Both the position numbers and the translations under genes were made by a program. Positions 17,452 to 59,693 of a stretch of DNA of 64,000 nt are shown piece by piece; within the stretch, counting starts at the first letter, position 1; each line of letters starts with the position of its first letter. The stretch is from Candidatus Thorarchaeota archaeon (GTDB lineage Archaea; Asgardarchaeota; Thorarchaeia; Thorarchaeales; Thorarchaeaceae). The notes under the pieces were generated by a model. The model made no database searches, was not told where the DNA came from, and worked only from the letters and a program-made list of their open reading frames with translations. The stretch spans positions 915-64,914 of the forward strand of contig JAUWOU010000002.1 of NCBI GenBank assembly GCA_030612005.1. Reading direction: 5' to 3'.

Positions 17452-17865
17452 TCATCCTTCAATTAGAGTAACGACGCCATTATCGGCGTCAACCTCTATC
17501 TTTTGTCCATTCTGAATTTTTCCAATATCAATCTGATCTACTGCAGGTATCTCTGAAATAATACAACCCACAGCAACAACCGGGTCCATTATTTTATTGA
17601 CAATTGCAAGAGGAGCTTTTTCTGCTTTCTTCAACGCATACAAAACATATGACCCTACTGTAGAACCTTTTCCGCTGGGAAAAACAAGGACTTTTCCTGA
17701 TACAGACTTTCCCTCTAGATGATGTCCCTTTTCTACTATCTCACCAGTTTCAGGATCACAACCACCGTAGAATGATATGTCATCTCCAGTAACTAGAGCT
17801 TCACCAGTTACTTTTCCCTTGAAGATTTTCCTTCCTTGCATTATGATATTGCCTCCTTGATACAC
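17452..17865 (-). CDS. AcnX-type small subunit (DUF126 family), candidate phosphomevalonate dehydratase small subunit
   Basis: About 137 aa with GEALVTGDDISFYGGCDPETGEI. Overlaps the large-subunit gene by 25 nt. Sits in an operon with MVK and a UbiD-like gene. Confidence 0.65.
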   Translation of the reverse strand: MYQGGNIIMQGRKIFKGKVTGEALVTGDDISFYGGCDPETGEIVEKGHHLEGKSVSGKVLVFPSGKGSTVGSYVLYALKKAEKAPLAIVNKIMDPVVAVGCIISEIPAVDQIDIGKIQNGQKIEVDADNGVVTLIEG

Positions 17866-29646: not shown

Positions 29647-29940
29647 GTGACAGAATCACTCCATTACGAAGCTTTCTTATTGTCGGATGTGTCGCCTCGA
29701 TTAGCGATGTCCGACCTCTCAAAAAACTCTCAGTGTGTACTCAAGGTTCTTGAAACTGCAGACTCCCTAACAACAACCGAGATCCTTGAGATTGCCCGTA
29801 AAAAGAAGTATGCCGACATATGCACAGACTGTGCTGGTGGCGATGCTTTCGTAGCTGCTGCCAACCAACTCGTTGAGATGGGTCTTGTCACTAAGAAGTT
29901 TGGCAAGGGAGGCTATCGGTGGCATTTGGTAAAAGGTTGA
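29647..29940 (+). CDS. Small hypothetical protein, possible winged-helix
   Basis: 97 aa. VLKVLETADSLTTTEILEIARKK resembles a wHTH helix. Weak evidence. Confidence 0.3.
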   Translation: MTESLHYEAFLLSDVSPRLAMSDLSKNSQCVLKVLETADSLTTTEILEIARKKKYADICTDCAGGDAFVAAANQLVEMGLVTKKFGKGGYRWHLVKG

Positions 29941-31187: not shown

Positions 31188-31192
31188 GTTTC

Positions 31193-33202
31193 TTATTTAA
31201 ACCTACTAGGAAGATGCCGTTCAAAAAGTCCCCACTTGATGGCTTTATTCACACTTCTCATCTTCCTTTTATGATCCGGAGGTGCAATCTTGACCCAAAT
31301 AGCCGCATCTCTGTTCCTGCTAGTAGTACATGACCAAAGTAGTGATATTTTTCCAGTTTCAGGATACAAAACCACTCTATCCCAGCGTCTTGTAATACTG
31401 ATAGCGAAATGCTCGACAATCTTCTTTTCACTTTCAAGGAGTCTACTTTTATTCTCCTTTATCATCTTGTGAAATCGTTGAGCTTCAGTTGCAATCTCTG
31501 AATCAGAATCCATCATCAATTTATCTAATTCTCCTTTTGTTATCACGATTTGTTTAGTTGGTTCTTCTTTGATAGAATAAGGATTCTTGAAATCTGTCGT
31601 TTTTCTTTTACCATGTTCAATGATAAATTGTTGTTCAGAATTCCCAATCCGCGATTCCAAACCGTATTTTTCCATTTTCCCACTATACAAGGTAACGGCA
31701 CGACTCCATTTAAACCTCCAACCACCTCCTTTGAACGAGAAGCTCCCATCTTCTGCAATCAACTGGCTTAGGTACTCTTGTTTGACTCTATTAGTTCCAT
31801 CTTTGATTACCTTGGGGAGGTCTGAATTGAGGATGCTTTTGTCACCAATAGGCATTCCCCATACCGCTAACATTCGACCGAATACAGCAGGTAATCCAAT
31901 AACATGGCCATCTTTTCTTTTAGATTCCCAATATTGAATTTCACCAAGCTGGCTAATTATTTCCTTGAATCTTCTAAGACGGACTTGGTCTTTCTCGTAA
32001 TAATGAGCCGACATTTTTGGTCTAAGATGTCCATCACTCATCATCGCACCAATTAATTGAGCTCTGATTATCTCTATATCTAATGGAAACTCTGGGTTCT
32101 CAATATTGCCTCTCCCACGTTTTGCACCAAAGCCCGAAATGTGTTTGATAGATTGAACATCTTGAATGTCCTTTCCGACCACATCTAGAATAAATCCAAG
32201 TGTTTCTCCTGTTAGATAATTACTTGATTTTCTGAGTTCATTTCTATCAGATCCTTGAGTGACGTTTCTAGTTTCTTCCGCAAATTGATTCAGTAATCTT
32301 CCAAAATCTCGACGACTAATACCTCCAAGATGAAGAAGAGCATTTTCAACAATTCTATTCTTTGCTTCAGAAGATTCGAAATGAAAATGATCGACAGCGT
32401 GTATATCTGTCCAACTATTAATACCTGGCACGCATCTATGGACATAAAGTGTATCATTTACTATTCCAATTCTCAGGCTATTAGTATCTAATTTGTTTTT
32501 GACCTCTCCCTGATTTCGCGTAATGTAATCAGATACACCCCTATACCATTGTGTTCCAAGAGTGGAGTATGGTCTCAAATTCGTATAATAGAATCGGATA
32601 TTTTGTGGCACTTGTTCGTCTAAACCAATTATCATTGATGCTACTTGTTGAAAATCCAATAGTTCGAATCTGAATTTCTTGAATGAATGATATACAAGAG
32701 AACAATCTATACAATGTTCTTGTGCCTCACATGGCACTTCCCGTTCACAATCAATCCTATCAGCCTCAAGTTTCTCAAGTATCCTTAGACCAAAAGGCCT
32801 TACTTCTCTGTAAGACCAATCATTAAACGATGAGTCAGGAATCCCATAATGTACCGCTAACTCCTTTCTTTGTACTCCCTCTGGAATTTTCCCCGTCTTC
32901 TTATCATCCTTCATTCTGAAATATCCAGCAATCTCTCGCAATTCCTTCTTTGCATCCATCCTTTCCATGAAAGAAGGATTTCTTTGTAAAACCTCTTGGA
33001 ATTCATCATAGGTTTCAATTCTCGAATTGAGGTTTCTCTCTCGTGCATTAATTTTTCCTATATTCTCTCCTTCCAGTGAAGGCTTAATCTTAGATAATTT
33101 GTCGTGATATTCTCTGATTATTTCATCTCTTTCTTCAGGAGTTAATCGTCTACCCTTTTTCTCTGAATCTTCGGATAAATCGTATTCTCGAGTTTCTCTC
33201 AA
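31193..33202 (-). CDS. Free-standing LAGLIDADG-type homing-endonuclease-like protein with two LAGLIDADG-like motifs and a long N-terminal extension
   Basis: AQLIGAMMSDGHL and YLSQLIAEDGSF resemble paired LAGLIDADG motifs. No intein splice-junction context. The N-terminal 55 aa are paralogous to the N-terminus of the 15309..16733 protein. Confidence 0.55.
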   Translation of the reverse strand: MRETREYDLSEDSEKKGRRLTPEERDEIIREYHDKLSKIKPSLEGENIGKINARERNLNSRIETYDEFQEVLQRNPSFMERMDAKKELREIAGYFRMKDDKKTGKIPEGVQRKELAVHYGIPDSSFNDWSYREVRPFGLRILEKLEADRIDCEREVPCEAQEHCIDCSLVYHSFKKFRFELLDFQQVASMIIGLDEQVPQNIRFYYTNLRPYSTLGTQWYRGVSDYITRNQGEVKNKLDTNSLRIGIVNDTLYVHRCVPGINSWTDIHAVDHFHFESSEAKNRIVENALLHLGGISRRDFGRLLNQFAEETRNVTQGSDRNELRKSSNYLTGETLGFILDVVGKDIQDVQSIKHISGFGAKRGRGNIENPEFPLDIEIIRAQLIGAMMSDGHLRPKMSAHYYEKDQVRLRRFKEIISQLGEIQYWESKRKDGHVIGLPAVFGRMLAVWGMPIGDKSILNSDLPKVIKDGTNRVKQEYLSQLIAEDGSFSFKGGGWRFKWSRAVTLYSGKMEKYGLESRIGNSEQQFIIEHGKRKTTDFKNPYSIKEEPTKQIVITKGELDKLMMDSDSEIATEAQRFHKMIKENKSRLLESEKKIVEHFAISITRRWDRVVLYPETGKISLLWSCTTSRNRDAAIWVKIAPPDHKRKMRSVNKAIKWGLFERHLPSRFK

Positions 33203-33342
33203 TTCTTTTCCTTCCCAAGGATATCAAGTCACATTTGGAACTCTTGTGTATCGGTCATCAAATCATCATTATATTCTTACTATATATTCACCTTGATAAT
33301 CCACACGTAATTTTCTATTCGATTGAAAAATATCTTGGAATA

Positions 33343-33480
33343 GTTATTCCATTTCACTATCAGATGGGAATTGATCCAAAGAAAGGCACAGCCCGTGCAA
33401 GTTTCTATCTCTATAATAACATGGATGATGTCAAAGCATTTCTTGATGGTCTAGAAACACTCATTGAAGCAAGTGCCTGA
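33343..33480 (+). pseudogene. Displaced, diverged copy of the 3' end of the cysteine desulfurase gene (last ~40 codons)
   Basis: ...PFHYQMGIDPKKGTARASFYLYNNMDDVKAFLDGLETLIEASA versus the sufS C-terminus PFHHQLGIPVERGTARASFYLYNNMEDVKTFLDGLETLLEASS. Estimated at about 85-90% nucleotide identity over about 100 bp (hand alignment). Upstream of 33343 the ORF has no sufS similarity. Confidence 0.7.
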
Positions 33481-33533: not shown

Positions 33534-35717
33534 TTAGTTTGTTTCCTTCTGAATTACTTCTTTTAGACGTTTAATCTCTTGAAGAGGATCTGCAAACTCA
33601 AAACCATTTGAAGATATTTCGATAGAATCTCCAAACTTCTTGATTCGTCCATACATTGCAATGTATCTACCGCGTATCTTGTCAGAGGTTGCTTGAATAG
33701 GTTCGTCCTCTTTGCCTGATTTGGCAATCAGTTTTTGAGCCTCCTCAGCGGTCATTCCTAGAAGTTTTTCACCAACAATACCGAACAAAGTTGCTCTTAT
33801 CGAACCTGAACCATCATCGATTGTAATCTTGTAGAGCATTCGTGGTTCTGGTTTTTCCACTTTTCCACATGATTTACAACTATACCCGTCATCAACAGCC
33901 TCAAGTTTTTTGTTGCATGTTGGGCACGCTTCGTAGAATACCCGATTCTGTCCCATGTCAACTATTATTCCGCAGACTTCGACGTTCTTACCTTCACTAG
34001 CTTCATCAATTTCACCAATAAGAACCCTTGACGCCTTAGTTGCTACAGTTTCAAAGGCAACATCTGATAGATCTAGTTGCTTAAGATCAGAATCCTCTGG
34101 ATTCAGTAAAATCTCTCCCTTACGACCTACTTGATACTCTAATCCCCCTCTATATCCTTCTTTCACATAACCGTGGAGAATCCTAATCACGTCGCCCTCT
34201 TGAACATCAGCTACTTTTTCTACATCTTCACCCCAGAAGGTTACTCTGATTTTGCTTGTCTGGTCCGCAATTACTACATTTCTTAACTGACCTTCAGCTC
34301 CATCTTTTCTTGTGAAAGTCTTAACATCGTAAGCAGTTACTACCTTACCTTCTATATCAACATCTCTCATTTCAACGGAAAGATCTGAAATGCTTATTTT
34401 TCCAAGGGGTTCAGAGCTACCTCCAGTTCCTGATGCTGAAGATGCATTTTCAGTAATCTTTGACAAATCAAGCTGTTTCAGTTTTGACCCCTTTGGGTTC
34501 AATTCAACCTTTGAACTCCTTCCAAATTGATACTCAACTCCACCTCTGAAACCTTCTTTCACATAACCATGGAGGATTCTGATTATATCGCCTTCCTTTG
34601 CTTTTGCAATGTGTTCATTATCTTCACCCCAGAAGGTCACTCTGATATTGCTTGTCTTGTCTGCGATGACAATATTTTGTACCTGTCCTTCACCACCATC
34701 CTTTCGTGTGAAGGTATTCACATCATAGATTGTTGCAATCTTACCTTCGATATCTACATCATTCATTCCGGTTTCCAAATCTACAATATCCTTCATTCCA
34801 AGTGGTTCTGAACTGCTTGAGTATTTTGGAGTTGATTCTGCAGTGTCGATTTTGTCCTTAAGTCCCCTTTCAATAACTGTTGATTTACCTACATGAATTT
34901 CTATGTCATCCCCATCACGATTTGGACGAGTATATGCATGATTTACTCCAATGACTTCTCCAGGTTCGATTCCTTCGACTTCGTCTGCTTTATCGTCCCA
35001 AAAAACAAGGCGTGAGCTTCCAGAATTGTCTGCGACAACCATTGCGAGTACTTTTCCTTCACTACCATCCTTTTTGTTGAATGTTGAAACTCTGAACACT
35101 CTTTGTATCTCTACCTTGAGAGAAACATCATAGGTGTTTTCCTGAAGATCGCTTATTTTCATTTCATCTTTAGATGTAGCACTGAAATCAACACCAAGTT
35201 CTTCAATCTCATCATTTTCAAGTGGTTTGATTGTACCCCTCTGACCTAGATTAAGTTCAATCGTATTACCGAGTCCTGGTTTAACATATGCTCCTCGTAC
35301 CTGAATGATACTTCCAACCGATATGTGATCTTCGGATACTGCCTTGGTCATTTCATCCCAAAGTGCAACTCTGATACTACCAGTTTCATCTGAGATGAAG
35401 ATACTAGCTACCTTTCCTTCCCCACCATCTTTTCGTGCGAAAGTTCGTACTGTACCTATTCTATCGACCCTACCCACAAGTCCTGCAACATTCTTGGTTG
35501 ATTCAGTAATATCTTCTATTCTCTGGCGCGCACTTGGTGACATTTTATGCAAATCTACACCTAGTTCTCTTGCCACAATCATGGCTGCTGATTCATCATT
35601 GATGACTTCCGGACCTAGTTCATTACGTTTATCCTGAATCATTGTAAGGATATCATTTCGTTCGTGGTCCGATTTATGCTTTAGAATTAATTCAATTGTT
35701 TCTTCAAGAGTGAGCAT
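33534..35717 (-). CDS. rpa: Replication protein A (RPA) with multiple OB folds and a C4 zinc ribbon
   Basis: Three near-identical OB-fold units (…RKDGGEGKV…IRV.FWG…) plus CPTCNKKLEAVDDGYSCKSCGK. Confidence 0.8.
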   Translation of the reverse strand: MLTLEETIELILKHKSDHERNDILTMIQDKRNELGPEVINDESAAMIVARELGVDLHKMSPSARQRIEDITESTKNVAGLVGRVDRIGTVRTFARKDGGEGKVASIFISDETGSIRVALWDEMTKAVSEDHISVGSIIQVRGAYVKPGLGNTIELNLGQRGTIKPLENDEIEELGVDFSATSKDEMKISDLQENTYDVSLKVEIQRVFRVSTFNKKDGSEGKVLAMVVADNSGSSRLVFWDDKADEVEGIEPGEVIGVNHAYTRPNRDGDDIEIHVGKSTVIERGLKDKIDTAESTPKYSSSSEPLGMKDIVDLETGMNDVDIEGKIATIYDVNTFTRKDGGEGQVQNIVIADKTSNIRVTFWGEDNEHIAKAKEGDIIRILHGYVKEGFRGGVEYQFGRSSKVELNPKGSKLKQLDLSKITENASSASGTGGSSEPLGKISISDLSVEMRDVDIEGKVVTAYDVKTFTRKDGAEGQLRNVVIADQTSKIRVTFWGEDVEKVADVQEGDVIRILHGYVKEGYRGGLEYQVGRKGEILLNPEDSDLKQLDLSDVAFETVATKASRVLIGEIDEASEGKNVEVCGIIVDMGQNRVFYEACPTCNKKLEAVDDGYSCKSCGKVEKPEPRMLYKITIDDGSGSIRATLFGIVGEKLLGMTAEEAQKLIAKSGKEDEPIQATSDKIRGRYIAMYGRIKKFGDSIEISSNGFEFADPLQEIKRLKEVIQKETN

Positions 35718-48651: not shown

Positions 48652-49485
48652 TCACTCATCCTGAAGAACAGCTTCAACTATACGAACTGCCATTTTCGTT
48701 TCTTTGATATCGTGTGTACGTATCACTTTGGCACCATTATAGACTGCAATAGCTGTGGCTGCTAGGGATCCATTGAGTCTTTCTGCAGGGTCTTTCTGTT
48801 TTAGTAGACTGCCTATGAAGGCTTTTCTGGACACTCCAACTAACAAAGGTTGATTGAAACGAGTGAACTGTTGCAAGCTTCCTAATATCTCGAAATCTAC
48901 TTCAGCTGGTTTTCCAAATCCTATTCCAGGATCCAAGAGTATTTTTTCTTGTCCTATTCCTGATTTGATTGCTATTGTATAACTGGCTTCTAGTGAACTT
49001 ATGGCTGAATAAATACTCTCACAGGGAGTTCCGCAGTTTGCCATAATCACTATAGGGACATCTCTAGAACTTACGAGATTCGCCATCTTTGGATCAGCAC
49101 GTAATCCCGAGATATCATTGACCATTGCTACCCCCATATCAAGAGCCACCTCTGCCACCTTAGATGAAACAGTGTCAATTGATATCGGTAGATTAGTCGA
49201 ATTTGTGATATCTCCGAGTACCTTCGTGAGACGCTTCAGTTCCTCTCGCTCTGAAATCTCAGATGTACCATAGACATTCTTTGGGGCAGTTGATGCTGCA
49301 CCAACATCAATGATATCGGCGCCATCTTTCTCCATTTTGTCAATGATTTGTCGAATTTTCGATTTATCCGTAGCAACGGTTCCTTTGTAGAATGATTCAG
49401 GTGATAGATTGAAGATACCCATAAGACGAACCGGATAACCATCTCCAATACGAAGTCCATCTACGTCAACTTTGTACTTTACCAA
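48652..49485 (-). CDS. folP: Dihydropteroate synthase
   Basis: MGIFNLSPESFYKG, GADIIDVGAASTAP and MVNDISG match pterin-binding blocks. Confidence 0.8.
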   Translation of the reverse strand: MVKYKVDVDGLRIGDGYPVRLMGIFNLSPESFYKGTVATDKSKIRQIIDKMEKDGADIIDVGAASTAPKNVYGTSEISEREELKRLTKVLGDITNSTNLPISIDTVSSKVAEVALDMGVAMVNDISGLRADPKMANLVSSRDVPIVIMANCGTPCESIYSAISSLEASYTIAIKSGIGQEKILLDPGIGFGKPAEVDFEILGSLQQFTRFNQPLLVGVSRKAFIGSLLKQKDPAERLNGSLAATAIAVYNGAKVIRTHDIKETKMAVRIVEAVLQDE

Positions 49486-49570
49486 GGAGTATGCCTCAAT
49501 AGTAGACTAAATGGAAGGACATAAAATGTAGTCGATTTAGCGTCGCATCAAGTCAAGACGGTGATTTTCG

Positions 49571-49735
49571 ATGAATGACAGGCTTGAAAGAACTCAGCTC
49601 TATGATTGGCATAAAGAACATGGTGACGTTATCCCGTTTGCTGGTTGGGAGATGCCAGTACGGTATACAACCATCAGAGAAGAGCACATGGCTGTCAGGG
49701 ATAGTTGTGGTGCTTTCGACGTCAGTCATTTCATT
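49571..49735 (+). pseudogene. Fragment homologous to the first ~54 codons of aminomethyltransferase GcvT; similarity is lost thereafter
   Basis: [54 protein letters not shown] versus the intact gcvT at 58082 ([49 protein letters not shown]). The rest of the 92-aa ORF is unrelated. Confidence 0.65.
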
Positions 49736-50679
49736 TTTGCTTCTCTGAGCATTGTACGTATCGATCCGCTACGAAGTGCTATTGAATGTTCTAACCACAA
49801 TTTTTCTGATATCTCTCCCGAAGAAAAACCACAACTACTTAATTCATGAACAAGTTTTCGTGTACCATCGGGTCTTTTCTTATTATGTCCTGTTAGAGAC
49901 AACATGGCAACAATTTGTGATAATTGGTGTTGCCGACCAGTCGCATACCTGAACATTGGAAATTCATGCATTTTTTTAATTGAGTCCTTTTTAAGAACTT
50001 CAACTCTTATTTTAGAATTTACAGGTTCAATTCCCATACATCTAAGTAAACTCTCAAGGAAATTTGTATTAACCTTGGAGGTTATTCCCACCTTTTGACT
50101 TTTGAATGAAGCATGACCATCACCATCACAGACACCCTGTAAGAACGCAACCTGCCAACTATGAGGTATTGAATGAATCCAATTTGCTTCTATCGGTGTT
50201 TCGTTTTCGATGGTTTCATGATAGAAAACCCAGTTCTCTTTCTTTCGCCACTTACACTCTATTACAGCACGAATCTGGATTTGGGGATGTTTTTCCAAAC
50301 CTAACTTCTCGCTTTTTGATGCAAGAAGATCTATCGTGCGATATACTGGCTCCTTCTGTCCTTCCCACTCTTTTCGAATTTCTTCTACCCAACTTGACTC
50401 TTCTTTTGGAATTTGTAAATCCCAATATGTTCCATGAATACTTGAAAACCACCCTCTCTTCTGGAACTGTAAATACGCCTGAAGCTCCAGTTCTAGCCCT
50501 CTTTCTCTTAGCTCTTTGAGGACGTTTTCAGTATGTTCGCGATTATCAGCGGTAGTGGAGTTCTCTTTTGACACAAATATCTCCCCATTTAACTGAGGTA
50601 TTACTGATTGTATTAACTTATGTCTAATTGTGTCTAGCCAACTATGGTCTTCTCTTTTCGTACGTATGATTCTTTGCAT
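49726..50679 (-). CDS. Hypothetical nuclease-like protein with one LAGLIDADG-like motif and a possible PD-(D/E)xK-like block
   Basis: [13 protein letters not shown] is LAGLIDADG-like. TIDLL...IRAVIECKW has PD-(D/E)xK-like D...ExK spacing. Both are motif-level only. Confidence 0.4.
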
Positions 50680-50997
50680 TACTCATGTTAGTTTGAAGGG
50701 CTTTGCACAGTTCTCTCGTTGAAGGAGCTGGATGAGTGGTTGACCTTCACCACAGCTGAAGGTTGGATTGGAGAAACCTACTTCGCAGATGCTATCATTC
50801 TGAATCCCCATGGTTGATAACCACTTTCAATGAGTGCAATTCAGATTCTGGATTCGCACTCTTTTTTCTTTTCAACGTCTTAGTATCAGTAAGCACCACA
50901 ATCTCTATCTTTCACCTACTGAAATATGAACATGAGGTATTCGTAATTTGAGGACATTCATTATTTTGCAAAAAACACCAGAATACGAAATACCCGT

Positions 50998-51192
50998 TCA
51001 GCTTTTTCTTGACATGAGTATAACTGATAGTATTATGAGTATGAATCCCCCTATAAAGAGGAAATATGGTAGAATACGTGACCAAATGCTAATTGTCACG
51101 AAATCGATTAGCGGGCCGCTGAAACCTGCCATTATGACTAGTATGACTCCGAGAATGAACAAGCTGATTGTCGGAATAGAAACGCGCCCCAT
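50998..51192 (-). CDS. Small membrane protein (64 aa, 2 TM). The alternative + strand ORF 50948..51205 is the less likely reading.
   Basis: Two clean hydrophobic helices with an RKS tail. Confidence 0.3.
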   Translation of the reverse strand: MGRVSIPTISLFILGVILVIMAGFSGPLIDFVTISIWSRILPYFLFIGGFILIILSVILMSRKS

Positions 51193-51282
51193 TTTAATTA
51201 CCTAGACATGGTACGAGCTCCCAGTCTATTAAACAAAACGGATGCCGATGCGAATCTTGACCAACTATGACTGTGAGGACAA

Positions 51283-51320
51283 AAAAAGGGTGAGTCCAAA
51301 AAAAACACTCACCCCTTTCA
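51283..51320 (-). terminator. Hairpin plus oligo-T intrinsic-terminator-like element just downstream of the protease-like gene
   Basis: Minus strand reads GGGTGAGT-GTTTTTTTTG-GACTCACCC followed by TTTTTTTGTCC. This is an 8-bp perfect stem and a T7 run. Confidence 0.45.
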
Positions 51321-51337
51321 AACACTAATAACTCCTT

Positions 51338-52981
51338 TCACAACGTCCTTCTCTGCAAAAAGTGGTAGAAGCAATACCATCCTTCACCGGCTGAGGTAGA
51401 CATTATACACTCGGGAGTGTCACAATAGTCTTCCGGCCCCCAAAAGGGAACGGAGATGTAGATGTGATGACCATATTCATGCCATATCACATAATTCATG
51501 TGACAGTGGTCGGCGTTGATTGCGATGCCATAGTTATAAATCCTGATACCATAGATATGCAAAGCATAGAGGTAACCTGCATAATCCGGATCTAAGCTCT
51601 CAACATAGATCACATACTCCCACTTTGCTTGTCCGATATGATCAAAGTAGTCTAGGTAATACGAGTAGTGTTCAGAAAGTGTAGTCTCCGAGTCTACTGG
51701 TAAGTCTTGTGATGTGGTGTAGGTCACATAATGATAGGAATGTGTTTTATAGTAAGCATTCATTGAAGTAATCTGAGATGCTAATGTCGTGATTGGAGTG
51801 TTTAGCATATAGTCAACCTCAAGGTTCCAACCAACGTGAGTCACGCATAACTGTTTAATTCTCTTTGCATAATCAATGTCAGGCATATACCTAAATACAA
51901 GTTTCAGTTTTCGATGAACATTATCCGTGTGCTCTCCAAGATACACCTGATATGATCCAGGACAGCTAATCCAACCTTTGAAGCTATATGTACCACCAGA
52001 ATTTTCAAAATAGACATATACTGACCGCCTTGTCGTGTCTGCAACATTCTCTGTTTGGATATTTAGTAACGTGTACTCACCTGCTAGAACATCGAACTCC
52101 ATTACACAATGTGTTTGTCCGGTTCTAGGAGTCAGCTCATTCATGGGATAGGGAAAACCATTGCTATCCATTGGTGGAGTCTGCTGATCACCGTTGGGCC
52201 CAGTTCCGTTTCCAACCCATCCATAAAGGAGTTTCCAACCTTGGTCAACATATCCACAATAGTTAATCGATATCTCTACTCTATGTCTGGTCAAGCTATT
52301 ATCTATCTTTGAAGCAGGAACGTATACTGAAGTCTTGAAGCCAAGCGAGGTTATAACACTCTGTTGTACAAAATTGTTGTCGAACCAGAAAGTCAAAAAT
52401 CTACTATAGGAATCCTGATCACGTACTATCCAAGCCCAAATATATAGATTGTCAGTAATCGGCGTATCAATCTCAATATCAAATGATAGGGTAGAATAAC
52501 TCTTCTTGGGCCACCATCTACCTTCCATAACTGGTGCTGTTGGCAAAGCTGGAAAATCATCACGAGTCGAGAGCAAAGGTTGCCATGGCCATCCTGAATC
52601 ATCTAGACTCTTAGTAGAAGCATCGCTTACCGATAATTCATCGCCTGGGTATATCTGGGGTGCACAATCAGTGCCATTAGAATCATCAGATATCTGACTT
52701 GGTGTTGTGTAGACATGTGATTCGGGCTCTGAGTACAAATCATCCATAGACTTGTATTCGATTAGCGCTGCCTGTTCTTGGGTCAATGGATTGTCCCAGT
52801 GTGTATTCAGAAACAATGCAGCATTGGGATCTAGGTCGGGTGAGTCCGATGCTGTTTTCACAGTTGGTTGTTGTAGGATTACTCCTCTATCAATAAGTCC
52901 TAATGGTGACAGCCCTATCACTGTAGTAGACGTAGTGAAGGACAGAATCACGATAAGGACAATAACCTTTTTTCTTATCAT
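51338..52981 (-). CDS. Secreted protein with an N-terminal signal/TM segment and a C-terminal HEXXH zinc-metalloprotease-like motif
   Basis: N-terminus MIRKKVIVLIVILSFTTSTTVIG. C-terminal VIWHEYGHHIY (H-E-x-x-H). Confidence 0.45.
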   Translation of the reverse strand: MIRKKVIVLIVILSFTTSTTVIGLSPLGLIDRGVILQQPTVKTASDSPDLDPNAALFLNTHWDNPLTQEQAALIEYKSMDDLYSEPESHVYTTPSQISDDSNGTDCAPQIYPGDELSVSDASTKSLDDSGWPWQPLLSTRDDFPALPTAPVMEGRWWPKKSYSTLSFDIEIDTPITDNLYIWAWIVRDQDSYSRFLTFWFDNNFVQQSVITSLGFKTSVYVPASKIDNSLTRHRVEISINYCGYVDQGWKLLYGWVGNGTGPNGDQQTPPMDSNGFPYPMNELTPRTGQTHCVMEFDVLAGEYTLLNIQTENVADTTRRSVYVYFENSGGTYSFKGWISCPGSYQVYLGEHTDNVHRKLKLVFRYMPDIDYAKRIKQLCVTHVGWNLEVDYMLNTPITTLASQITSMNAYYKTHSYHYVTYTTSQDLPVDSETTLSEHYSYYLDYFDHIGQAKWEYVIYVESLDPDYAGYLYALHIYGIRIYNYGIAINADHCHMNYVIWHEYGHHIYISVPFWGPEDYCDTPECIMSTSAGEGWYCFYHFLQRRTL

Positions 52982-53136
52982 ATCTTTCTCCTGAGAGATT
53001 AATTCCTATGATGACTATAAGTGCAAGTCATCAAAATTCTGAAACTCCCTCCCCTTATGTTGCAATACTTTGATATAACTCCTTTGAAGAGCGGCAGCTC
53101 AAGAGCTAGTATTATAACTGAAGTTCAAATGAGTTT

Positions 53137-53589
53137 GTGAGGGGTCATCATTTGAAAGATATCCAGATTCTAGAAGACTTGAAAGGGAAGACCCTTGCAA
53201 TATACTTCTTTCTTCTTGGACAGACTGAACCAATTTCGGGGAGGGAAATCCAGAGGAGAATGGGAATCTCAAGTCCGAGTCTAGCGCTATACCATCTGAA
53301 AAAGCTTGAAGAGCTCGAATTGGTCGGGATGAGCCAGACTGGGGGATTTCAGGTCACAAGATACATTAGAGTCGGGATCCTGCGATTCTTCATTGGAATG
53401 GGTAGGTTTTATCTCCCTCGTTATGTGTTCTACTCTCTCTTTGCCATATCATATCTTGTCGGAGCGTTGTGGGCTTTTGGATGGAATCTAACGCCTCATT
53501 TCATATTGTTTATTCTTTATATATCGTTTTCAATATTCATTTTCTCGTATGAAGCCGTGAGTGTTTGGAGGAGCAGGCCGAGTATATAG
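53137..53589 (+). CDS. Membrane-associated winged-HTH regulator (N-terminal wHTH plus 2-3 TM helices)
   Basis: GREIQRRMGISSPSLALYHLKKLEELELV is wHTH-like. Followed by hydrophobic helices. Confidence 0.45.
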   Translation: MRGHHLKDIQILEDLKGKTLAIYFFLLGQTEPISGREIQRRMGISSPSLALYHLKKLEELELVGMSQTGGFQVTRYIRVGILRFFIGMGRFYLPRYVFYSLFAISYLVGALWAFGWNLTPHFILFILYISFSIFIFSYEAVSVWRSRPSI

Positions 53590-53708
53590 CTTCACCCTGG
53601 CTTGAGTGTTCTAGCTCTAAGATTAGCTCGCCATAATGTATGGAAGCTCTAATGATAGGATTAAGTACAAACATGTCTATTGTTTAATCTGGATATCAGT
53701 TGTGAGAA

Positions 53709-54899
53709 GTGAGAACATTGCATAAAAGAGAATTTTCAGCTACCCTTGTACTGATTATTGTGACTTCAATGATTTGTGGATTCACTGTTCCCTTGTTAGT
53801 GAATTCGGCAACAAGGACGAATTCTGCAGTCATTCCAGAACCTGGAGTTGAAATCCCTAACACTGTTTTCGCCTCACTATCAACAGACGAAATCGATTCA
53901 GCTATTATCATTGGAAACTGGTCAGAATCAGGATTAACCGGGAGATACCACCTAGACCTTCCAAACCCGTCGATTACTGAGGAAGAGGGGAAGATCATTG
54001 CTCTCACATTCGTCGATGATGATTTGAGAGCCTTTCTGGATGAAGATCCAGAGAATCCAAAAACAAACCGTATGAATGAGTGGAGATATGTCTTTTTCAA
54101 TGGAACAAGACTTGAAAACGGAATATATGACTACGAAGCATACGTATGCATAACTCTGAACTCGATGACTGGGAGAGTCATCGGATGTTATGAGGTGCTC
54201 TCAAAGGAGTTTCTTGCCTTATTATATTCCGGAAGAAGCTACTGTCCACTGAAAAATGAAACTGAAGCACAATACATGGGGCGCGACTACCTCTTAGAAC
54301 ACAACTATACACTGCCCTACAACACTTATCTACTGGATACTAGGATAGAGATGTTTCACTACGAATCCGCTCCTGGTGAACCAGAGAATGTGACACGACC
54401 TATGTACATCATTGAGCTTGGGATTGCTAGAAACAGAGTTCTTCCAGGCCGTATGCACCAAGGCCTCTTAATCCAAATTGACGGAGTAACAGGTCGTGTG
54501 TTTCGCTTCGAGTACCGTGCGCTTCAACTTCCTGAAGTTTCTCTAGCCAACCTCGTTTCCATTTCGACTGCGAGGACAGTTGCCCACGAGTACGTTCTGA
54601 ATGACAACAAAGAACGAGCCGTTTATTTGCGGCTCGTTCACAGTTTCTGGGTTCAGTTGGATTATGAACTAGCATGGGCTTTTGCGTATGAATTGAATCT
54701 GTCATCCGGAGTGTCTGTGGAGGAATTCTATGTAAATGCCAGAAGTGGAACAAGCTTCTATCCAGAACCCCTGTTTAGTGGAGGAATCTCCTTGGGTTCT
54801 AATCCGTTTATAGGAATCGTTCTAGTACTATTTGCTTCCACGATTGTCGGAGTTACAGGATACTCCGTCACAATGAAGAAAATCAGAAGAGGATCATAG
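53709..54899 (+). CDS. Secreted or surface protein with a signal peptide and a C-terminal TM anchor with a KKIRRGS tail
   Basis: N-terminus SATLVLIIVTSMICGFTVPLLVNSA. C-terminus IGIVLVLFASTIVGVTGYSVTMKKIRRGS. Confidence 0.45.
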   Translation: MRTLHKREFSATLVLIIVTSMICGFTVPLLVNSATRTNSAVIPEPGVEIPNTVFASLSTDEIDSAIIIGNWSESGLTGRYHLDLPNPSITEEEGKIIALTFVDDDLRAFLDEDPENPKTNRMNEWRYVFFNGTRLENGIYDYEAYVCITLNSMTGRVIGCYEVLSKEFLALLYSGRSYCPLKNETEAQYMGRDYLLEHNYTLPYNTYLLDTRIEMFHYESAPGEPENVTRPMYIIELGIARNRVLPGRMHQGLLIQIDGVTGRVFRFEYRALQLPEVSLANLVSISTARTVAHEYVLNDNKERAVYLRLVHSFWVQLDYELAWAFAYELNLSSGVSVEEFYVNARSGTSFYPEPLFSGGISLGSNPFIGIVLVLFASTIVGVTGYSVTMKKIRRGS

Positions 54900-55205
54900 A
54901 TAGAACTCATCTTAGTACCTATGAGTGGGCTGTTAAGAAGTGCCAAGGGTTCAAGAAAGAAGGCGTCAAATCAGTGGATAAGATGTTTGGTTGGCAGATT
55001 ATGACCATTGTCTTTTCTATCACTTTGGGCCTATATGGAGGTTCAATCCCTAGCGACTTCTCTAGCCAGCTTCTTGTAGGTTTGGGTGTCCCCGCCATCA
55101 CAATTAGTGCTGTGATTCCTACACTTCGAAAAGAGGGAAAGGCTTGGTTGAGAAACAGGACAATTGTACACAACTTTTGCAATGGGTTTCTATTATTATC
55201 TATTC

Positions 55206-55946
55206 TTACATATTATCAAGAAAGAATGACAATGGTAGTGTCGTAGCCATCATTTTCCTGCTTGGTCTATTTTCCTGTTCTTTTCTGAGAGGATACTGTG
55301 GGTGCTTGATCAGGTTGTAAATGAGCCTCTCCTTAGTTTCTTCCACGTAGACATGGACCTGCGCTGAGTGTTTGAGACCCTGTCCTGCTGCTGGATTGTA
55401 CCTATACCTTTGCGAAGAACTCCCAGTGATGATGGTCACGATGTTGTGCTTCAGAGTGAAGGTCATCAGTCGATGAGCCATGTGGGTCAGGTGTTGCTTT
55501 CCCTCTGCCTTCACTCCCTCTCCATAATAGATGTCGGCGAGACCTGGAAGGAGCAAGAGCCTAGCAGGAACGCGCTCGAAGAAGGAGTCCAACTGGTTCA
55601 TCACAACATCATAGGTCTGGCTGGAATTGAAAGCCCTTGTTACGAAGATGTTGTCCATGACCGTTTCAGGTTCAAGTCCGTGCTCGAAGGACCAGTGAGT
55701 GAGAGTTTCGATTCTGAGCATGTTCTCTGAGTCGATGAGGATGGAAGGGATATTCATGCCACCCTTCTCTGGTGGGAGTTGGGCGTGGACTGCGACTCGG
55801 TGAAGGCATTCGCGGATGGTGCGTGACCCATAGAGCAGGTAGGTAAGCCCCATCTCCAGCCCACCACCAAGTAGGGAATCCAGTGGTTTGATACCTGTCT
55901 GGAGGACCTCGCGCTTGGTTAGTTTGTCTGCGGTTTGGAAGGACAT
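55206..55946 (-). CDS. RadA/KaiC-like RecA-fold protein with a degenerate P-loop. The ORF extends to 56045, but the likely start is MSFQTADKL at 55946.
   Basis: TGIKPLDSLLGGGLEMGLTYLLYGSRTIRECL has the RecA-family N-terminal layout, but Walker A G-x4-GK[TS] is replaced by YGSRTIRE. Confidence 0.5.
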   Translation of the reverse strand: MSFQTADKLTKREVLQTGIKPLDSLLGGGLEMGLTYLLYGSRTIRECLHRVAVHAQLPPEKGGMNIPSILIDSENMLRIETLTHWSFEHGLEPETVMDNIFVTRAFNSSQTYDVVMNQLDSFFERVPARLLLLPGLADIYYGEGVKAEGKQHLTHMAHRLMTFTLKHNIVTIITGSSSQRYRYNPAAGQGLKHSAQVHVYVEETKERLIYNLIKHPQYPLRKEQENRPSRKMMATTLPLSFFLDNM

Positions 55947-56081
55947 CTCACTCGGAAGTGGTATGGTGGTCGAGGACCTATAAACGACTATAGAAAGTAT
56001 TTCTATCATTGATATCGAAATACATAACTGGGTATATTCGAACAATCCAATGTAATTCGTTATGCTGTAGGATGGGTTTCA

Positions 56082-57617
56082 GTGATAGAAGATGGAGAAA
56101 TAGCAATATTCTGGGATATTGAAAATTGTCCTCCTCCAAGCAAAATGAGAGGAATTGCTGTAGAGAAACAGCTTCGGAAAGCACTTCGACAGTATGGCAG
56201 AATCTATCAGGTCAATGCTTATGCTGAGATGACTAAAATTCCTGAAAAACTTCGCATGGAACTTCAGAGGTCTGGTGTCCATTTGATTGACACACCTCAT
56301 GTCAAGGAGAAAGAAGTCGCTGACTTTATGATAATTACTGATATGTACGTGTTTGCCCATAAGAATGAGCCTCCACAACGGGTAGCCCTCATCTCTGGTG
56401 ATTCTGGTTATGCCTATAGTCTCGCAAAATTAAGACAACTCGACTATGAAGTGGTTCTCATAGTACCACCGTCTGGAGTTTCTTCCATCCTTCGTGAGCA
56501 GGCTGATATCATTCTTGAATGGAATGAGATAATGGATATTCAGGAAGCTGTGCTTGAGGACACAGAATTGAGATATGAGCCGTTACTCAAGGTTATCGAA
56601 GATCTTAACGAAATGGGTGTTGATGAGCCGACGTTATCTGAGATAGAACAACTTCTCTCAACTAAATATCCAACATGGAGTAAAACATCAGGTTATGAAA
56701 CAATATCAGAGTACATCGAGAGTGCTGAGTCTAGCGGTCTGGTAGTGAAATATTCCAAGGACACAATATCGCGCCTACGAATAACGGAAGATGAGAGTGA
56801 AGACATCGATTATACTACATCGGATTCAAACAGATTCAAACCGCTCAGAACAGCTCTTGCACAACTTGGAGACAAGGATAATCATGAACCTGAACTGGCT
56901 ATCATTGGAGTGATTCTCCGAACTCTAATGACAGATCCCCTTGAGAAGTTGGGAGTTTCCCGATTGAAGGACTATGTTATGGAGGCAGAAGAAGCAGGAA
57001 TTGTGAATGTTCGTCAAGACGGACTTCAGTACTATGTAACCCTAAAGGCTGAAGGTCCTGAAGATAAACTCACCTTCGAAGAGAAAGAGACACTTGATCT
57101 CTTCGAGCTTGCTTTGGACTCTCTAAAGGAGGAATTGATTATGCCAACTCCTAGAACTATCGTTGGTCGTATGAGTGCACTTCGGCCACAATGGAGTCTA
57201 GCTCGCTCAACCTACACTGATGAATCCCACTTGCTGTCTGAGGCTCAGAAAAATCGAAGTATCATTACAAAAGCAGTAGGTTCGTCATTGGTGATATTCC
57301 CAAGCACAGGTGAATTTGATTACATAGACGTTACGGATTCTACCAATCCATATACTCCTAATCAATGGATTGCATTCTATGATTACTTGCTCGCGAACAA
57401 AGACAAATGGGTAAAGGGACGCTATGCATATGCATGGAGAATCAGAAATTCTGAAATTGAGGAACTGAAGGATTTGAAATTGGGACATCTTATCCATATG
57501 GTCCAGATTGCTATCAATGAAGCATCACTTGGGAAGAGAATGGGTAGTTGGGATTCTTTCACGCCTGTGGAAAATAACGTCCTAATTATGAGAAAACACT
57601 ATCTCTCGAAAAAGTAG
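56082..57617 (+). CDS. NYN-domain (LabA/Limkain-b1-type PIN-like nuclease) protein with 2-3 C-terminal OST-HTH/LOTUS-like repeats
   Basis: N-terminus IAIFWDIENCPP...VHLIDTPHVKEKEVADFMIITDMY...VALISGDSGYAYSLAKLRQLDYEVVLI matches conserved NYN acidic blocks. C-terminal ~70-aa winged-helix-like repeats (LSEIEQLLSTKYPTWSKTSGYETISEYIESAESSGLVVK; ELAIIGVILRTLMTDPLEKLGVSRLKDYVMEAEEAGIVNVR). Confidence 0.6.
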   Translation: MIEDGEIAIFWDIENCPPPSKMRGIAVEKQLRKALRQYGRIYQVNAYAEMTKIPEKLRMELQRSGVHLIDTPHVKEKEVADFMIITDMYVFAHKNEPPQRVALISGDSGYAYSLAKLRQLDYEVVLIVPPSGVSSILREQADIILEWNEIMDIQEAVLEDTELRYEPLLKVIEDLNEMGVDEPTLSEIEQLLSTKYPTWSKTSGYETISEYIESAESSGLVVKYSKDTISRLRITEDESEDIDYTTSDSNRFKPLRTALAQLGDKDNHEPELAIIGVILRTLMTDPLEKLGVSRLKDYVMEAEEAGIVNVRQDGLQYYVTLKAEGPEDKLTFEEKETLDLFELALDSLKEELIMPTPRTIVGRMSALRPQWSLARSTYTDESHLLSEAQKNRSIITKAVGSSLVIFPSTGEFDYIDVTDSTNPYTPNQWIAFYDYLLANKDKWVKGRYAYAWRIRNSEIEELKDLKLGHLIHMVQIAINEASLGKRMGSWDSFTPVENNVLIMRKHYLSKK

Positions 57618-58081
57618 AGTACAGATGTAAGTTCATCAACACTACTCATCCAATCACTTCCTCAACCTTCCTCCCATGCAATTTCCTGCATGACTTGGAT
57701 ATACACCTCAAGATGTGGCAATCTGCATTCAGCATAACTCCCCTCGAAACTTCACGTAGAATAGTGTATGCCACGTTATTTACACCAATCACTCAGAATT
57801 GACAGAAATATTCAAGTTCTCAGTGTCATCTGTGTACCAAGTTCACCAATACTTTGAGCATTACATACCTAGATATCTATATTTAATCACAGTGTTCGTA
57901 TAATTCTCCGAGTGTGGAGCAAAAGGGTAACAAGTTTGGTTGTACATCAGACTTCGTGATGCTCAATATCACACAATATGGTCCCATACATCCACTATCT
58001 ATTTCTATGATTATTAGCGAAGGTTTTTTTGGATGTATTTTCCCCAATCGAATGGATTGAAGAGCACTCAATTCTTCAGGT

Positions 58082-59242
58082 TTGGTGAATAGCGTTTTGA
58101 CTGATACACTCAATAGAACTCAGCTTTACGAATGGCACAAAGAACATGGCGACATCGTTTCCTTTGCTGGTTGGGCAATGCCTGTTAGATTCTCAAACAT
58201 TCGAGAGGAACATATGGCTGTCAGAGAGGCTGTTGGAATCTTCGATGTGTCAAACATGTTGAGAATGTGGATTGAGGGGCCAGATTCTATTGATTTTCTC
58301 CAAACAGTAACTACCAACAACGTACGCAAATTGAAGATCAATGGTGGTCAATATTCCACCTGCCTGAACGAGAATGGTGGAACCTTTGATGACCTCATGT
58401 TGTATCGAATTGGAGAAGAGGAGTTCATCTGGGTTACCAACGCAGCCAATGGGGCCAAAATCTGGGCTCATCTCGAAGAACAAGCAAAGAAGTTCGACGT
58501 GAAAGTGACTGATAAAACAAAAGAGATAGCTATGATTGCAGTACAAGGTCCTAATGCACTAGCGCTTCTGGGTAAGATGTCAGAGAAAGATATGGATGAA
58601 TTTGGCAGATTCACGTGCAATCCTTTGACTATTGCTGGATACGACACTTTCCTGTGCAGAACTGGGTATACTGGTGAAGCAGGCGCAGAAGTATTAGTAT
58701 TGAACTGCTCTTTCTCTGAGGAGGGAAAGGAGAGAGCAACCGGATTCTGGAAAGAAATACTCGCCCAAGGTGCTGAGTTTGATATCAAGCCCTGCGGGTT
58801 AGGAGCAAGAGACTCAACACGCCTAGAAGCTGGGTTTGTTCTCTATGGACACGAGCTTGACGAAGAAACATCACCAATCGAAGCTCGGATACCATATGCG
58901 GTCAAGTTCAAAGTAGAACCTCACTATATTGGCTACGACACAGTACGGAGTCATAAGAAAGAAGGTGTTAAGAAGACTCGAATTGGATTTGTTATGATTG
59001 ATCGAGGGATTCCAAGGGAAAAATATCCAATTCTCCTTAATGGCTCAGAAATCGGCATGACAACCAGTGGTGGTATCTCACCCATATCAAACAAGGGCAT
59101 TGGAATGGGCTATGTTCCCCCCGATACAGTCGATGTTGGTGATATCATTGAAATCGACATCAAAGGTCGCCATCGAAGAGCAGAAGTTACGAAGTGGCCC
59201 TTCTATGATCTTGAAAAGTATGGTGAAACAAGGACTGCATAA
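58082..59242 (+). CDS. gcvT: Glycine cleavage system T protein (aminomethyltransferase)
   Basis: [45 protein letters not shown] at the N-terminus. Full length 386 aa. Followed by gcvH. Confidence 0.85.
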   Translation: MVNSVLTDTLNRTQLYEWHKEHGDIVSFAGWAMPVRFSNIREEHMAVREAVGIFDVSNMLRMWIEGPDSIDFLQTVTTNNVRKLKINGGQYSTCLNENGGTFDDLMLYRIGEEEFIWVTNAANGAKIWAHLEEQAKKFDVKVTDKTKEIAMIAVQGPNALALLGKMSEKDMDEFGRFTCNPLTIAGYDTFLCRTGYTGEAGAEVLVLNCSFSEEGKERATGFWKEILAQGAEFDIKPCGLGARDSTRLEAGFVLYGHELDEETSPIEARIPYAVKFKVEPHYIGYDTVRSHKKEGVKKTRIGFVMIDRGIPREKYPILLNGSEIGMTTSGGISPISNKGIGMGYVPPDTVDVGDIIEIDIKGRHRRAEVTKWPFYDLEKYGETRTA

Positions 59243-59285: not shown

Positions 59286-59693
59286 TTGGTGGACAATATG
59301 GGCGACACCGAAATTAAAGATGAATTAAAATATAGTGCTGAACACGAGTGGATCAAAGTCGAAGGTGATATTGCAATCATTGGGATAACTGATCATGCTC
59401 AGAATGCACTGCACGAGATTACTTTTGTTGAAATCTCTGAGGTAGGCACAGTACTCAAAGCGAATGATGAATGCGGACTTGTTGAGTCCATGAAAGCCTC
59501 ATCAGATCTCTTCACACCAATTGGTGGCGAGATTGTAGAAGTGAATACTGAGCTTGAAGATGCTCCAGAAAAAATCAACGAAGATTGCTATGGGGAAGGG
59601 TGGTTGTTCAAGATTAAACCTTCAAATCTTGAAGCAGACCTTGCAGCCCTAATGGATGCGAACGCATACAAGGCATTAATCGAATCCGAATAA
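59286..59693 (+). CDS. gcvH: Glycine cleavage system H protein
   Basis: KYSAEHEWIKVEGDIAIIGITDHAQNAL and the lipoyl-lysine region VESMKASSDLFTPIGGEIVEVN. Confidence 0.85.
   Translation: MVDNMGDTEIKDELKYSAEHEWIKVEGDIAIIGITDHAQNALHEITFVEISEVGTVLKANDECGLVESMKASSDLFTPIGGEIVEVNTELEDAPEKINEDCYGEGWLFKIKPSNLEADLAALMDANAYKALIESE

Follow-up and report, generated by a model that had tools for sequence, protein, structure and literature searches.

An integrase-free island in the gcvT gene of a Thorarchaeota archaeon and its decayed LAGLIDADG homing endonuclease gene

The island between folP and gcvT

The 64,000-nucleotide (nt) stretch of Candidatus Thorarchaeota archaeon contig JAUWOU010000002.1 analyzed here (the window) carries between folP and gcvT an 8,526-bp island that divides the 5' end of gcvT from the rest of the gene. 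A displaced gcvT fragment lies at its left boundary, next to the remnant of a predicted LAGLIDADG homing endonuclease gene (HEG), and an intact gcvT is found at its right boundary. The left flank consists of folP (positions 48652 to 49485, minus strand), ancestrally divergent from gcvT, and of the native 85-bp folP-gcvT intergenic region (49486 to 49570). The Pfam domain Pterin_bind has been recorded for folP in L001, one of the comparison loci, which are referred to by L numbers. The intergenic region is identical to the spacer in L052 and 96% identical to those in L003 and L004; kept upstream of the fragment, it presumably holds the divergent promoters. The fragment (49571 to 49729, plus strand) represents the first 53 codons of the native gcvT and is abutted by a 317-codon open reading frame (ORF317; 49726 to 50679, minus strand), whose stop codon lies inside the Ser-His codons of the fragment. 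The island proper extends from 49730 to 58255 and includes, after several cargo genes, a non-coding tract (57618 to 58096) upstream of the intact gcvT ORF (58082 to 59242, plus strand); gcvH (59286 to 59693) follows.

The initial annotation described the fragment as a diverged gcvT 5' end starting at 49571, and this description was borne out. The fragment ORF (49571 to 49849, plus strand), which continues past its gcvT part through antisense HEG sequence, matches the Pfam family GCV_T (E = 1.3e-12), and its first 55 residues align with residues 6 to 60 of the intact GcvT with 36 identities (65%; E = 1e-28). The amino acid (aa) identity of the fragment to the N terminus of the L003 protein is 87%, with a dN/dS ratio of 0.17. 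At the nucleotide level, the two copies form a 151-nt repeat (49572 to 49722 and 58098 to 58248) with 71% identity and a spacing of 8,526 bp, equal to the length of the island. This is the sole boundary repeat, and it contains no identical run longer than 13 nt and no att core; the precise direct repeats that were to be looked for at the two boundaries were not found.

A scan of reference genomes with gcvT yielded 36 Thorarchaeota-type loci (one titled Promethearchaeota and a few labeled "uncultured archaeon"). The most informative comparison comes from L051 and L052 (the latter from GCA_004196255.1), which belong to the same species as the window and show 97.1 to 97.8% (∼97.5%) nt identity to it in both flanks; L052 differs by 240 substitutions in 11,150 nt (2.15%). 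The island is absent from both loci, whose flanks align to the window up to 49729 and from 58115 on, overlapping by 141 nt. The gcvT gene of L052 equals the window fragment (158 of 159 nt) followed by the intact gene of the window from nt ∼165 (57 to 60 identical nt per 60-nt block), and comparison with this allele places the insertion point at ...GAC GTC AGT CAT ^ ATG CTA AGA... In ∼30 Thorarchaeota species, the gene order is topoI-OST3-mptE-folP, a spacer of ∼85 to 115 bp, and gcvT-gcvH-AglB, with no island; as had been asked at the outset, folP does lie directly beside gcvT elsewhere. The island found in the window recurs in L001, an independent metagenome assembly with the same fragment-island-gcvT arrangement.

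In principle, the fragment might stem from a gcvT paralog or a local duplication unrelated to mobile elements, as partial duplicates do arise via replication slippage or illegitimate recombination, or it could be an assembly artifact. The empty allele, however, is the fragment joined to the 3' portion of the intact gene, so the fragment must be the native 5' end in displaced form and not part of a second paralog; the L052 junction and the native 85-bp spacer further indicate that this 5' end still occupies its original position. The relatives have only one gcvT each, and the arrangement is also seen in independent assemblies and other lineages, so the probability of a paralog or an artifact appears negligible.

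The 5' end that now serves the intact gene is foreign. The 53 codons at 58097 to 58255 (plus strand), which start with a TTG homologous to the native ATG start codon and end with ...GTG TCA AAC, replacing His by Asn, agree with the native fragment in 68% of nt and with no sampled allele in more than 70%, synonymous sites being saturated. The native 3' part of the gene (58256 to 59242, plus strand; codon 59 onward) follows, its first ∼57 nt having 5 substitutions relative to L052. The hybrid ORF keeps the full GCV_T and GCV_T_C domains according to Pfam; an exact-sequence look-up with the window GcvT and with a 137-aa ORF (17452 to 17865) returned no match. The element-borne tract at 57618 to 58096 shows no similarity to any fetched locus and is presumed to act as the replacement promoter of gcvT. 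Its first 464 bp (57618 to 58081), already noted as non-coding, contain no listed ORF longer than 76 aa, no Rfam match, and no tRNA. The insertion is polymorphic within the species and has an exact junction, a native fragment on its left side, and a foreign new 5' end on its right side. This supports the initial proposal of an insertion into the 5' end of gcvT by an element that supplies a replacement 5' end.

The endonuclease gene and its recurrence at gcvT

In the initial annotation, ORF317 was described as a nuclease-like gene with a LAGLIDADG-like motif and a PD-(D/E)xK-like block. The first part of this assignment is supported by homologs of the ORF that pass the Pfam cut-off for LAGLIDADG (22.5 bits), but the PD-(D/E)xK nuclease in the N-terminal half found no support in any library scanned, and ORF317 is a truncated chimera and not an intact nuclease. 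The HEG remnant (49726 to 50207, minus strand), delineated by tblastn with full-length HEGs, comprises the second LAGLIDADG domain and a C-terminal helix-turn-helix (HTH) domain. Residues ∼160 to 317 align with the C termini of the long HEGs from L041 (60% identity), L007 (42%), and L043 (39%) in tblastn; the motif of ORF317 by itself scores 16.8 to 18.1 bits, below the cut-off. Only the second LAGLIDADG motif is retained; the first motif and the N-terminal HTH array have been lost, and tblastn with the HEG detected no further piece of it anywhere in the window.

The N-terminal half of ORF317 (50200 to 50679, minus strand) has a different source. It corresponds, at 86 to 87% identity (85.9% to L002 in blastn), to the start of a gene encoding the 318-aa protein P0003, together with ∼80 nt of the P0003 upstream region. 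Residues ∼38 to 160 are 87% identical to the N-terminal half of P0003, whose C-terminal half differs; the respective family (P0002 to P0004) is uncharacterized. The two matches overlap by an 8-nt microhomology, AAAACGAA on the sense strand of the ORF (50200 to 50207, minus strand). In the junction segment tested, read in the sense direction, nt 1 to 63 match the P0003 gene (89%) and nt 56 to 119 match the L041 HEG (83%). A microhomology-mediated rearrangement has swapped the N-terminal ∼520 residues of the HEG for the start of an unrelated gene. Since the second domain alone is kept, the window copy of this truncated HEG is very unlikely to be active, judging by its sequence, and the island is probably no longer self-mobile.

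Full-length members of this family consist of 600 to 840 aa and combine an N-terminal HTH array with two LAGLIDADG motifs (for example, LLGVALSDGKF and AFLQGVADGDGHASL) and a C-terminal HTH. The L007 protein matches Pfam LAGLIDADG_3 with 33 bits and also reaches the Hom_end cut-off, the L006 protein scores 27.4 bits, and "LAGLIDADG family homing endonuclease" is the NCBI name of the L007 HEG/P0005. LAGLIDADG_3 is matched by 43 of the 64 aligned family members (E ≤ 0.001), and all 64 share the motif aspartates D452 and D568. The homologs of the C-terminal half of ORF317 are therefore predicted to be LAGLIDADG enzymes. A word-indexed protein search with the HEG alignment gave just 2 proteins; the family becomes visible in an exhaustive profile search, with 334 cluster representatives (clusters at 50% identity), 258 of them at E ≤ 1e-10.

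At least 12 cluster representatives of 146 to 186 aa (P0091, P0134, P0142, P0143, P0152 to P0154, P0156, P0157, P0159, P0162, and P0170) cover just the last ∼150 to 175 residues of the HEG profile, similarly to the remnants in the window and L006. These may reflect recurrent decay, truncation at contig ends, or a stand-alone functional domain. An intact HEG paralog is encoded between MazG and Sec61beta/L44e in the species of the window (L051, 7522 to 9129; L053, 2925 to 4586). The same paralog is found ∼2 kb downstream of AglB in L003 (16414 to 18234), L005, L008, L023, and L036, a location that in the window would be just past the right end. This copy has become either fixed or domesticated.

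HEG relatives, intact or decayed, are found at the gcvT locus in five further lineages, represented by L041, L043, L007, L006, and L045. Two architectures can be distinguished. In the window, L041, and L043, the fragment (plus strand) is followed by the HEG (minus strand) and, in the window and L043, by cargo and then the intact gcvT; the L041 contig stops inside the HEG, and L043 holds ∼7 kb of other cargo. In L007, L006, and L045, the HEG lies on the plus strand and ends 50 to 84 bp upstream of the intact gcvT; the displaced fragment of L007 is located 4.4 kb upstream of gcvT and adjoins folP. The window, L043, and L007 thus each have an endonuclease ORF flanked by two copies of the gcvT 5' end; a single copy of this end is present on the fetched contigs of L041, L006, and L045. 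The HEG is the sole gene common to all six loci, and the cargo is not the same between lineages (window, L007, L043, and L045). An intein- or intron-borne HEG was considered and rejected: the HEG lies outside the gcvT reading frame in every case, on the opposite strand (window, L041, and L043) or upstream on the same strand (L007, L006, and L045), Rfam finds no intron, and gcvT is restored by duplication, not by splicing.

The breakpoints coincide as well. The displaced fragments are all of the native type (the L043 fragment is 86 to 88% identical in nt to the N terminus of its own clade) and end within ∼8 nt of each other: ...AGT CAT| in the window, ...AGT CAT AT| in L041, ...GAT ACT| in L007, and ...GAC ACT| in L043. 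Such a scatter would be expected of a site-specific double-strand break with processed ends, unlike the crossover made by a recombinase. The HEG and the gcvT site are recurrently linked.

Conversion tracts and recoding mark the same site. In the window, a ∼300-nt tract of gcvT (∼58260 to 58550, or nt ∼165 to 450 of the gene) begins exactly at the insertion site and has 84 to 87% identity to L006, a distant lineage (63% aa identity in topoisomerase I), but only 62 to 71% to L004 and L005, which are close relatives; this relation is reversed downstream. This tract is also present in L003 (90 to 96% nt identity to the window) and in L052 (57 to 60 of 60 nt per block). Judged by these alignments, it looks like an older co-conversion tract moved between distant lineages, that is, a trace of an earlier homing event. 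Immediately to the right of the junction, the 5 substitutions in the first 57 nt relative to L052 contrast with a background of 2%.

The two empty alleles of the species differ from each other at the site itself, L051 having 7 synonymous changes in 13 nt relative to L052 (GTT TCC CAC ATG TTG versus GTC AGT CAT ATG CTA). The naive L052 allele reads TTCGACGTCAGTCATATGCTAAGAATG, the recoded L051 allele GTTTCCCACATGTTG, and the island-borne copy GATGTGTCAAACATGTTG; just downstream of the recoded site, L051 matches the island-borne copy. The serine codon change from AGT to TCC cannot be reached by single synonymous steps, and the recoding of L051 looks like conversion to, or selection for, a site that would be uncuttable. 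In three of the five HEG-linked intact copies (window, L043, and L007), the conserved His is replaced by Asn (AAC); the other two, L006 and L045, retain His and have other changes just upstream. Mosaic 5' ends that look like scars of loss or allele replacement occur in the HEG-less loci L027 and L003, the latter being 98% identical to L004 over its first 90 nt.

A proposed homing origin of the insertion and its alternatives

The locus can be explained as an integrase-free insertion into gcvT that owes its origin, and probably its spread, to a free-standing LAGLIDADG homing endonuclease, an explanation to which we assign a probability of somewhat less than 80%. Cleavage at the gcvT site, copying by double-strand-break repair, immunity through changes of the site, and hitch-hiking of cargo are the steps suggested by the compared alleles. 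In the ancestral state, folP and gcvT would have been divergent neighbors 85 bp apart. The endonuclease would recognize ∼20 bp of gcvT around codons 56 to 60 (TTC GAC GTC AGT CAT ATG CTA AGA) and cut there, and the break would be repaired from a donor already bearing the element. The displaced fragment of the donor would act as the left homology arm by pairing with the left end of the break, and the body of the donor gcvT would pair with the right end. Everything in between would be copied, namely, the HEG, the adjacent cargo, the new promoter tract, and the divergent gcvT codons 1 to 58, leaving the native 5' end and its promoter stranded beside folP. Since the element brings a replacement 5' end and a promoter tract, gcvT stays intact and the insertion would be harmless; the element-borne copy is predicted not to be cut again because its site differs (GTG TCA AAC, with His changed to Asn). 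With the LAGLIDADG ORF as the likely mobility gene, the lack of an integrase is to be expected.

Several observations weigh against this explanation. The proposed target is a candidate derived from four breakpoints, and its cleavage by members of the HEG family is a prediction. The AlphaFold models of ORF317 (pLDDT of 37.4) and P0005 (41.7) are too poor to confirm a LAGLIDADG fold, and searches of PDB with sequences and profiles of the HEG family returned only HTH matches and no LAGLIDADG structure. The two architectures seen at gcvT are not both predicted by a single simple model, and the replacement 5' end has no close donor among the sampled alleles. The cluster of genes that appears as cargo in L045 sits ∼35 kb away from the island in the window, and some of the "islands" may be larger rearrangements at the break site. 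Finally, the island is polymorphic at ∼2% divergence even though the window HEG has a single domain. With this HEG defunct, the polymorphism requires a trans-acting enzyme, ordinary homologous exchange, or loss in the relatives. Mobilization of a defunct neighbor in trans has a precedent in phage T4 (mobE and I-TevIII; PMC2790892).

Loss in the relatives would mean that the island is ancestral and that deletion, or replacement by alleles without the HEG, produced the empty state of L051, L052, and L003. The nearly identical fragment-HEG junction in the more distant L041 fits such a history, as do the decayed state of the window HEG, the near identity of the first 90 nt of L003 to L004, which suggests recent allele replacement, and the scar-like structure of L027 and L003. 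On the other hand, L052 is of the fragment type up to the last nt before the junction, and a deletion between repeats of 71% identity would require a crossover confined to a few nt; the divergence of the fragment (1 of 159 nt) is not above the genome average (2.15%). Loss rather than gain is accordingly considered somewhat unlikely, and it would alter the timing only, leaving the nature of the element unchanged.

Another possibility is that a conventional recombinase or transposase, since lost, inserted the island and that the LAGLIDADG gene is a passenger. Many integrative elements target gene ends and supply a replacement end, and another mobility gene could have decayed just as the HEG has. 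However, scans of the island ORFs with Pfam, NCBIfam, PHROGs, and PADLOC revealed no integrase, recombinase, or transposase domain, in agreement with the initial annotation; none was found in the scanned ORFs of L043 and L045 either, and for two cargo ORFs of L007 Pfam gives YdjM only. The gcvT copies, with 71% identity and no core above 13 nt, are unlike att sites, the breakpoints are spread over ∼8 nt and not fixed as in a crossover, and the HEG alone is shared by all six loci. This origin appears very improbable. The gcvT island does resemble the integrase-encoding elements that rebuild the ends of tRNA genes in that it carries a replacement end and leaves the displaced part at the other boundary; it differs in the absence of an integrase and of an identical att core, the duplicated segment being 159 nt long and only 68 to 71% identical.

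The closest known parallels to the proposed homing event are the mobile ORF elements (mORFs) of fungal mitochondria, exemplified by atp6 of Allomyces macrogynus and by atp6, atp9, cox2, and nad3 of Glomus (PMC3630166, citing Paquin et al. 1994). There, a LAGLIDADG or GIY-YIG ORF separates a divergent, inserted gene terminus from the native one, whose similarity to the closest relative amounts to 91 to 100% (PMC3630166). The window elements share with mORFs the free-standing endonuclease ORF, the foreign terminus that keeps the gene intact, and the native terminus left nearby. For both gcvT and sufS (see below), a displaced native terminus, a foreign terminus with an intact hybrid gene, and a putative endonuclease ORF between them are all present. 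The host, in contrast, is an archaeal chromosome, the nuclease at gcvT lies on the opposite strand with no in-frame fusion, the gcvT islands contain at least 2 to 7 kb of unrelated cargo between the nuclease and the replacement end, and the enzymes have a long N-terminal HTH array. As it is the 5' end and not the 3' end of gcvT that is replaced, a promoter is also needed, unlike in mORFs.

Intronless homing in phages, represented by the T4 Seg and Mob enzymes, is similar to the proposed process in that the HEG lies outside introns and inteins, the HEG-less allele is cut and repaired from the HEG-bearing genome, and the flanks are co-converted. In contrast to the gcvT island, however, phage HEGs are intergenic, cleave a neighboring gene with no duplication of gene ends, belong to the GIY-YIG and HNH families, and rely on phage coinfection. 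Among archaea, the HeimM2 element of Heimdallarchaeum (PMC8813620) and the Haloferax glycosylation islands (PMC5867893) are ∼8 kb or longer and contain a homing-endonuclease-like gene (free-standing LAGLIDADG genes in Haloferax), for which a role in site-specific integration or in island transfer through gene conversion has been proposed from gene content. The passages available from these accounts mention no gene-end duplication, exact empty-allele junction, recurrent breakpoint, or conversion tract, and the targets given there are an rRNA-tRNA spacer or unknown, in contrast to the protein-coding target of the gcvT island. Searches of full-text literature on LAGLIDADG in Thorarchaeota and on homing endonuclease in Asgard returned no description of the system seen here. 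Gene-end replacement by a free-standing endonuclease is thus known from fungal mitochondria, and no description of it in an archaeal chromosome was found.

If the homing explanation is correct, multi-kb DNA can enter an Asgard chromosome precisely inside a gene of an essential pathway with no integrase, transposase, or tRNA target. The gene-end replacement design would be extended to a cellular chromosome, in an archaeal lineage related to eukaryotes. It would also explain mosaic housekeeping genes, with their foreign 5' or 3' ends and tracts shared across distant lineages, which can mislead single-gene phylogenies and strain binning. The proposed target sequence is testable for at least 334 clusters of large predicted LAGLIDADG enzymes, which could include new rare-cutting nucleases, and the synonymous recoding of an empty allele would represent a natural host-element conflict at a predicted homing site.

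Cargo, the sufS element, and the DUF87 cluster

The cargo ORFs are those listed in the initial annotation, and domain searches bore out its assignments of a winged-HTH, a Rad51/RadA-like, and an NYN protein. A ∼140-nt segment next to ORF317 (50775 to 50912) is of local chromosomal origin, being 94.7% identical to positions 19485 to 19615 of L004, ∼5 kb downstream of AglB. It is followed by a 64-aa hydrophobic ORF (50998 to 51192, minus strand) and a 547-aa ORF with an N-terminal hydrophobic segment and a HEYGHH motif (51338 to 52981, minus strand), neither of which matches any family. The next two genes (53137 to 54899, plus strand) encode a 150-aa winged-HTH/transmembrane protein with a weak Pfam HTH match and a 396-aa protein with hydrophobic N- and C-terminal segments and no family match; a homologous pair adjoins glyA in L009 (75% and 55% aa identity, respectively). 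A paralog of RadA/Rad51 (55206 to 56045, minus strand) matches Pfam Rad51 (E = 7.8e-19), stays far below the NCBIfam cut-off for RadA, and, as read from its translation, appears to have no canonical Walker A motif. The last cargo gene (56082 to 57617, plus strand) codes for a protein with the NYN (E = 1.1e-21) and the LOTUS-associated OHA (E = 1.2e-7) domains, whose homologs in other Thorarchaeota have unrelated neighbors. PHROGs and PADLOC returned nothing for the cargo except a weak match of the RadA-like ORF to the PHROG "DNA repair protein" (E = 7.3e-5), and Rfam and tRNA scans of the island gave no match. In L004, the counterpart of the 140-nt segment is followed by what appears by eye to be an intron-containing tRNA-like sequence (19485 to 19770 in all).

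The deviating composition anticipated for the region 49.7 to 58.1 kb was not observed: the GC content of the island is 0.420 versus 0.414 in the rest of the window, and its tetranucleotide distance ranks 11th among 56 chunks of equal size. Nor does the cargo represent one conserved block that travels as a unit, given the unrelated neighbors of the NYN genes and the different cargo in L007, L043, and L045. The 7.4 kb of cargo is instead a patchwork of ordinary Thorarchaeota genes. The chimeric ORF317, the gene pair shared with L009, the segment shared with L004, and the varied NYN contexts indicate that the interior has been remodeled by illegitimate recombination, and at least part of the cargo arrived by secondary rearrangement. 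The space between the dead fragment and the dying HEG tolerates insertions.

A second, compact element of the same kind is located in sufS (29919 to 33480), as had been suspected, and is polymorphic among close relatives. The window sufS (29919 to 31187) ends in a foreign 3' part (31055 to 31187) and is followed by a 669-aa ORF (ORF669; 31193 to 33202, minus strand) and by the displaced native 3' fragment (33348 to 33480; 46 codons); the internal repeat has 76% identity over 46 aa. L056 (97.0 to 98.5% nt identity to the window) and L058 (94 to 99%) lack ORF669, and their SufS C terminus equals the displaced fragment at the aa level, the working C terminus of the window protein being the foreign one. 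With its 2.3 kb and replaced 3' end, this element comes close to the anatomy of mORFs. The assignment of ORF669 as a nuclease is based on its position, two LAGLIDADG-like motifs recognized by visual inspection, and tblastn similarity to the HEG N terminus (E = 4e-4); Pfam detects no LAGLIDADG domain in it, and hhalign against the gcvT-type HEG profile gives a weak N-terminal match (E = 0.0013, probability of 18%).

The window also contains, at 6576 to 15321, a cluster that extends from a KaiC-like ATPase through a 933-aa DUF87/HerA-like ATPase to a 722-aa protein. In L045 (500 to 10014), the ten genes upstream of the HEG (KaiC, DUF87, and a 699-aa ORF among them) are syntenic with this cluster, at 26 to 48% aa identity. 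In L043 (2658 to 8386), the HEG follows a 1,034-aa DUF87 ORF and an 876-aa ORF on the same strand, and in L042 a DUF87 remnant precedes a member of the HEG family at another site. The KaiC-DUF87 cluster may be mobile, with a nuclease that can be exchanged, or it may be a piece of the chromosome that underwent rearrangement at break sites.

Under the first option, the HEG would be the integration module of a larger HerA/DUF87 and KaiC-like element, and the window island a decayed relic whose core has been replaced by chromosomal genes. The DUF87 genes that precede the HEG in L043, L045, and, as a remnant at the other site, L042 are consistent with this, and the homologous cluster in the window ends in a different, HNH-like ORF with an HTH array (15309 to 16733). 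Yet the islands of the window and L007 have no genes of the DUF87 cluster, which could be an ordinary chromosomal block shifted by rearrangement; the window cargo has no PHROG or PADLOC match besides the weak one of the RadA-like ORF (E = 7.3e-5), and the left end of the L045 island, with its fragment, was not seen on the fetched contig. We therefore consider such an origin unlikely.

A still broader and equally doubtful generalization of the homing explanation is that Thorarchaeota harbor "homing islands" in which an HTH-array LAGLIDADG endonuclease serves as the integration module, the stranded fragment as the left arm, and several kb of arbitrary DNA as cargo, sometimes including a whole HerA/DUF87-KaiC cluster with an exchangeable terminal nuclease (LAGLIDADG or HNH-like). 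The gcvT and sufS genes and the Sec61beta/L44e neighborhood might then be landing pads for gene flow among Asgard archaea.

The ORF that closes the DUF87 cluster in the window, just before rpsB (ORF474; 15309 to 16733, plus strand), consists of ∼7 tandem HTH repeats resembling sigma-70 region 4 and a C-terminal HNH-like Cys/His motif; its N-terminal motif SLTTEERDKIIREYN resembles the N terminus of ORF669, RLTPEERDEIIREYH. An RPA-like gene (33534 to 35717, minus strand) contains internal OB-fold repeats (self-matches within 34066 to 35496) and encodes 727 aa in the window versus 502 aa in L056 (6592 to 8100), with an indel near 35096 to 35340 of the window.

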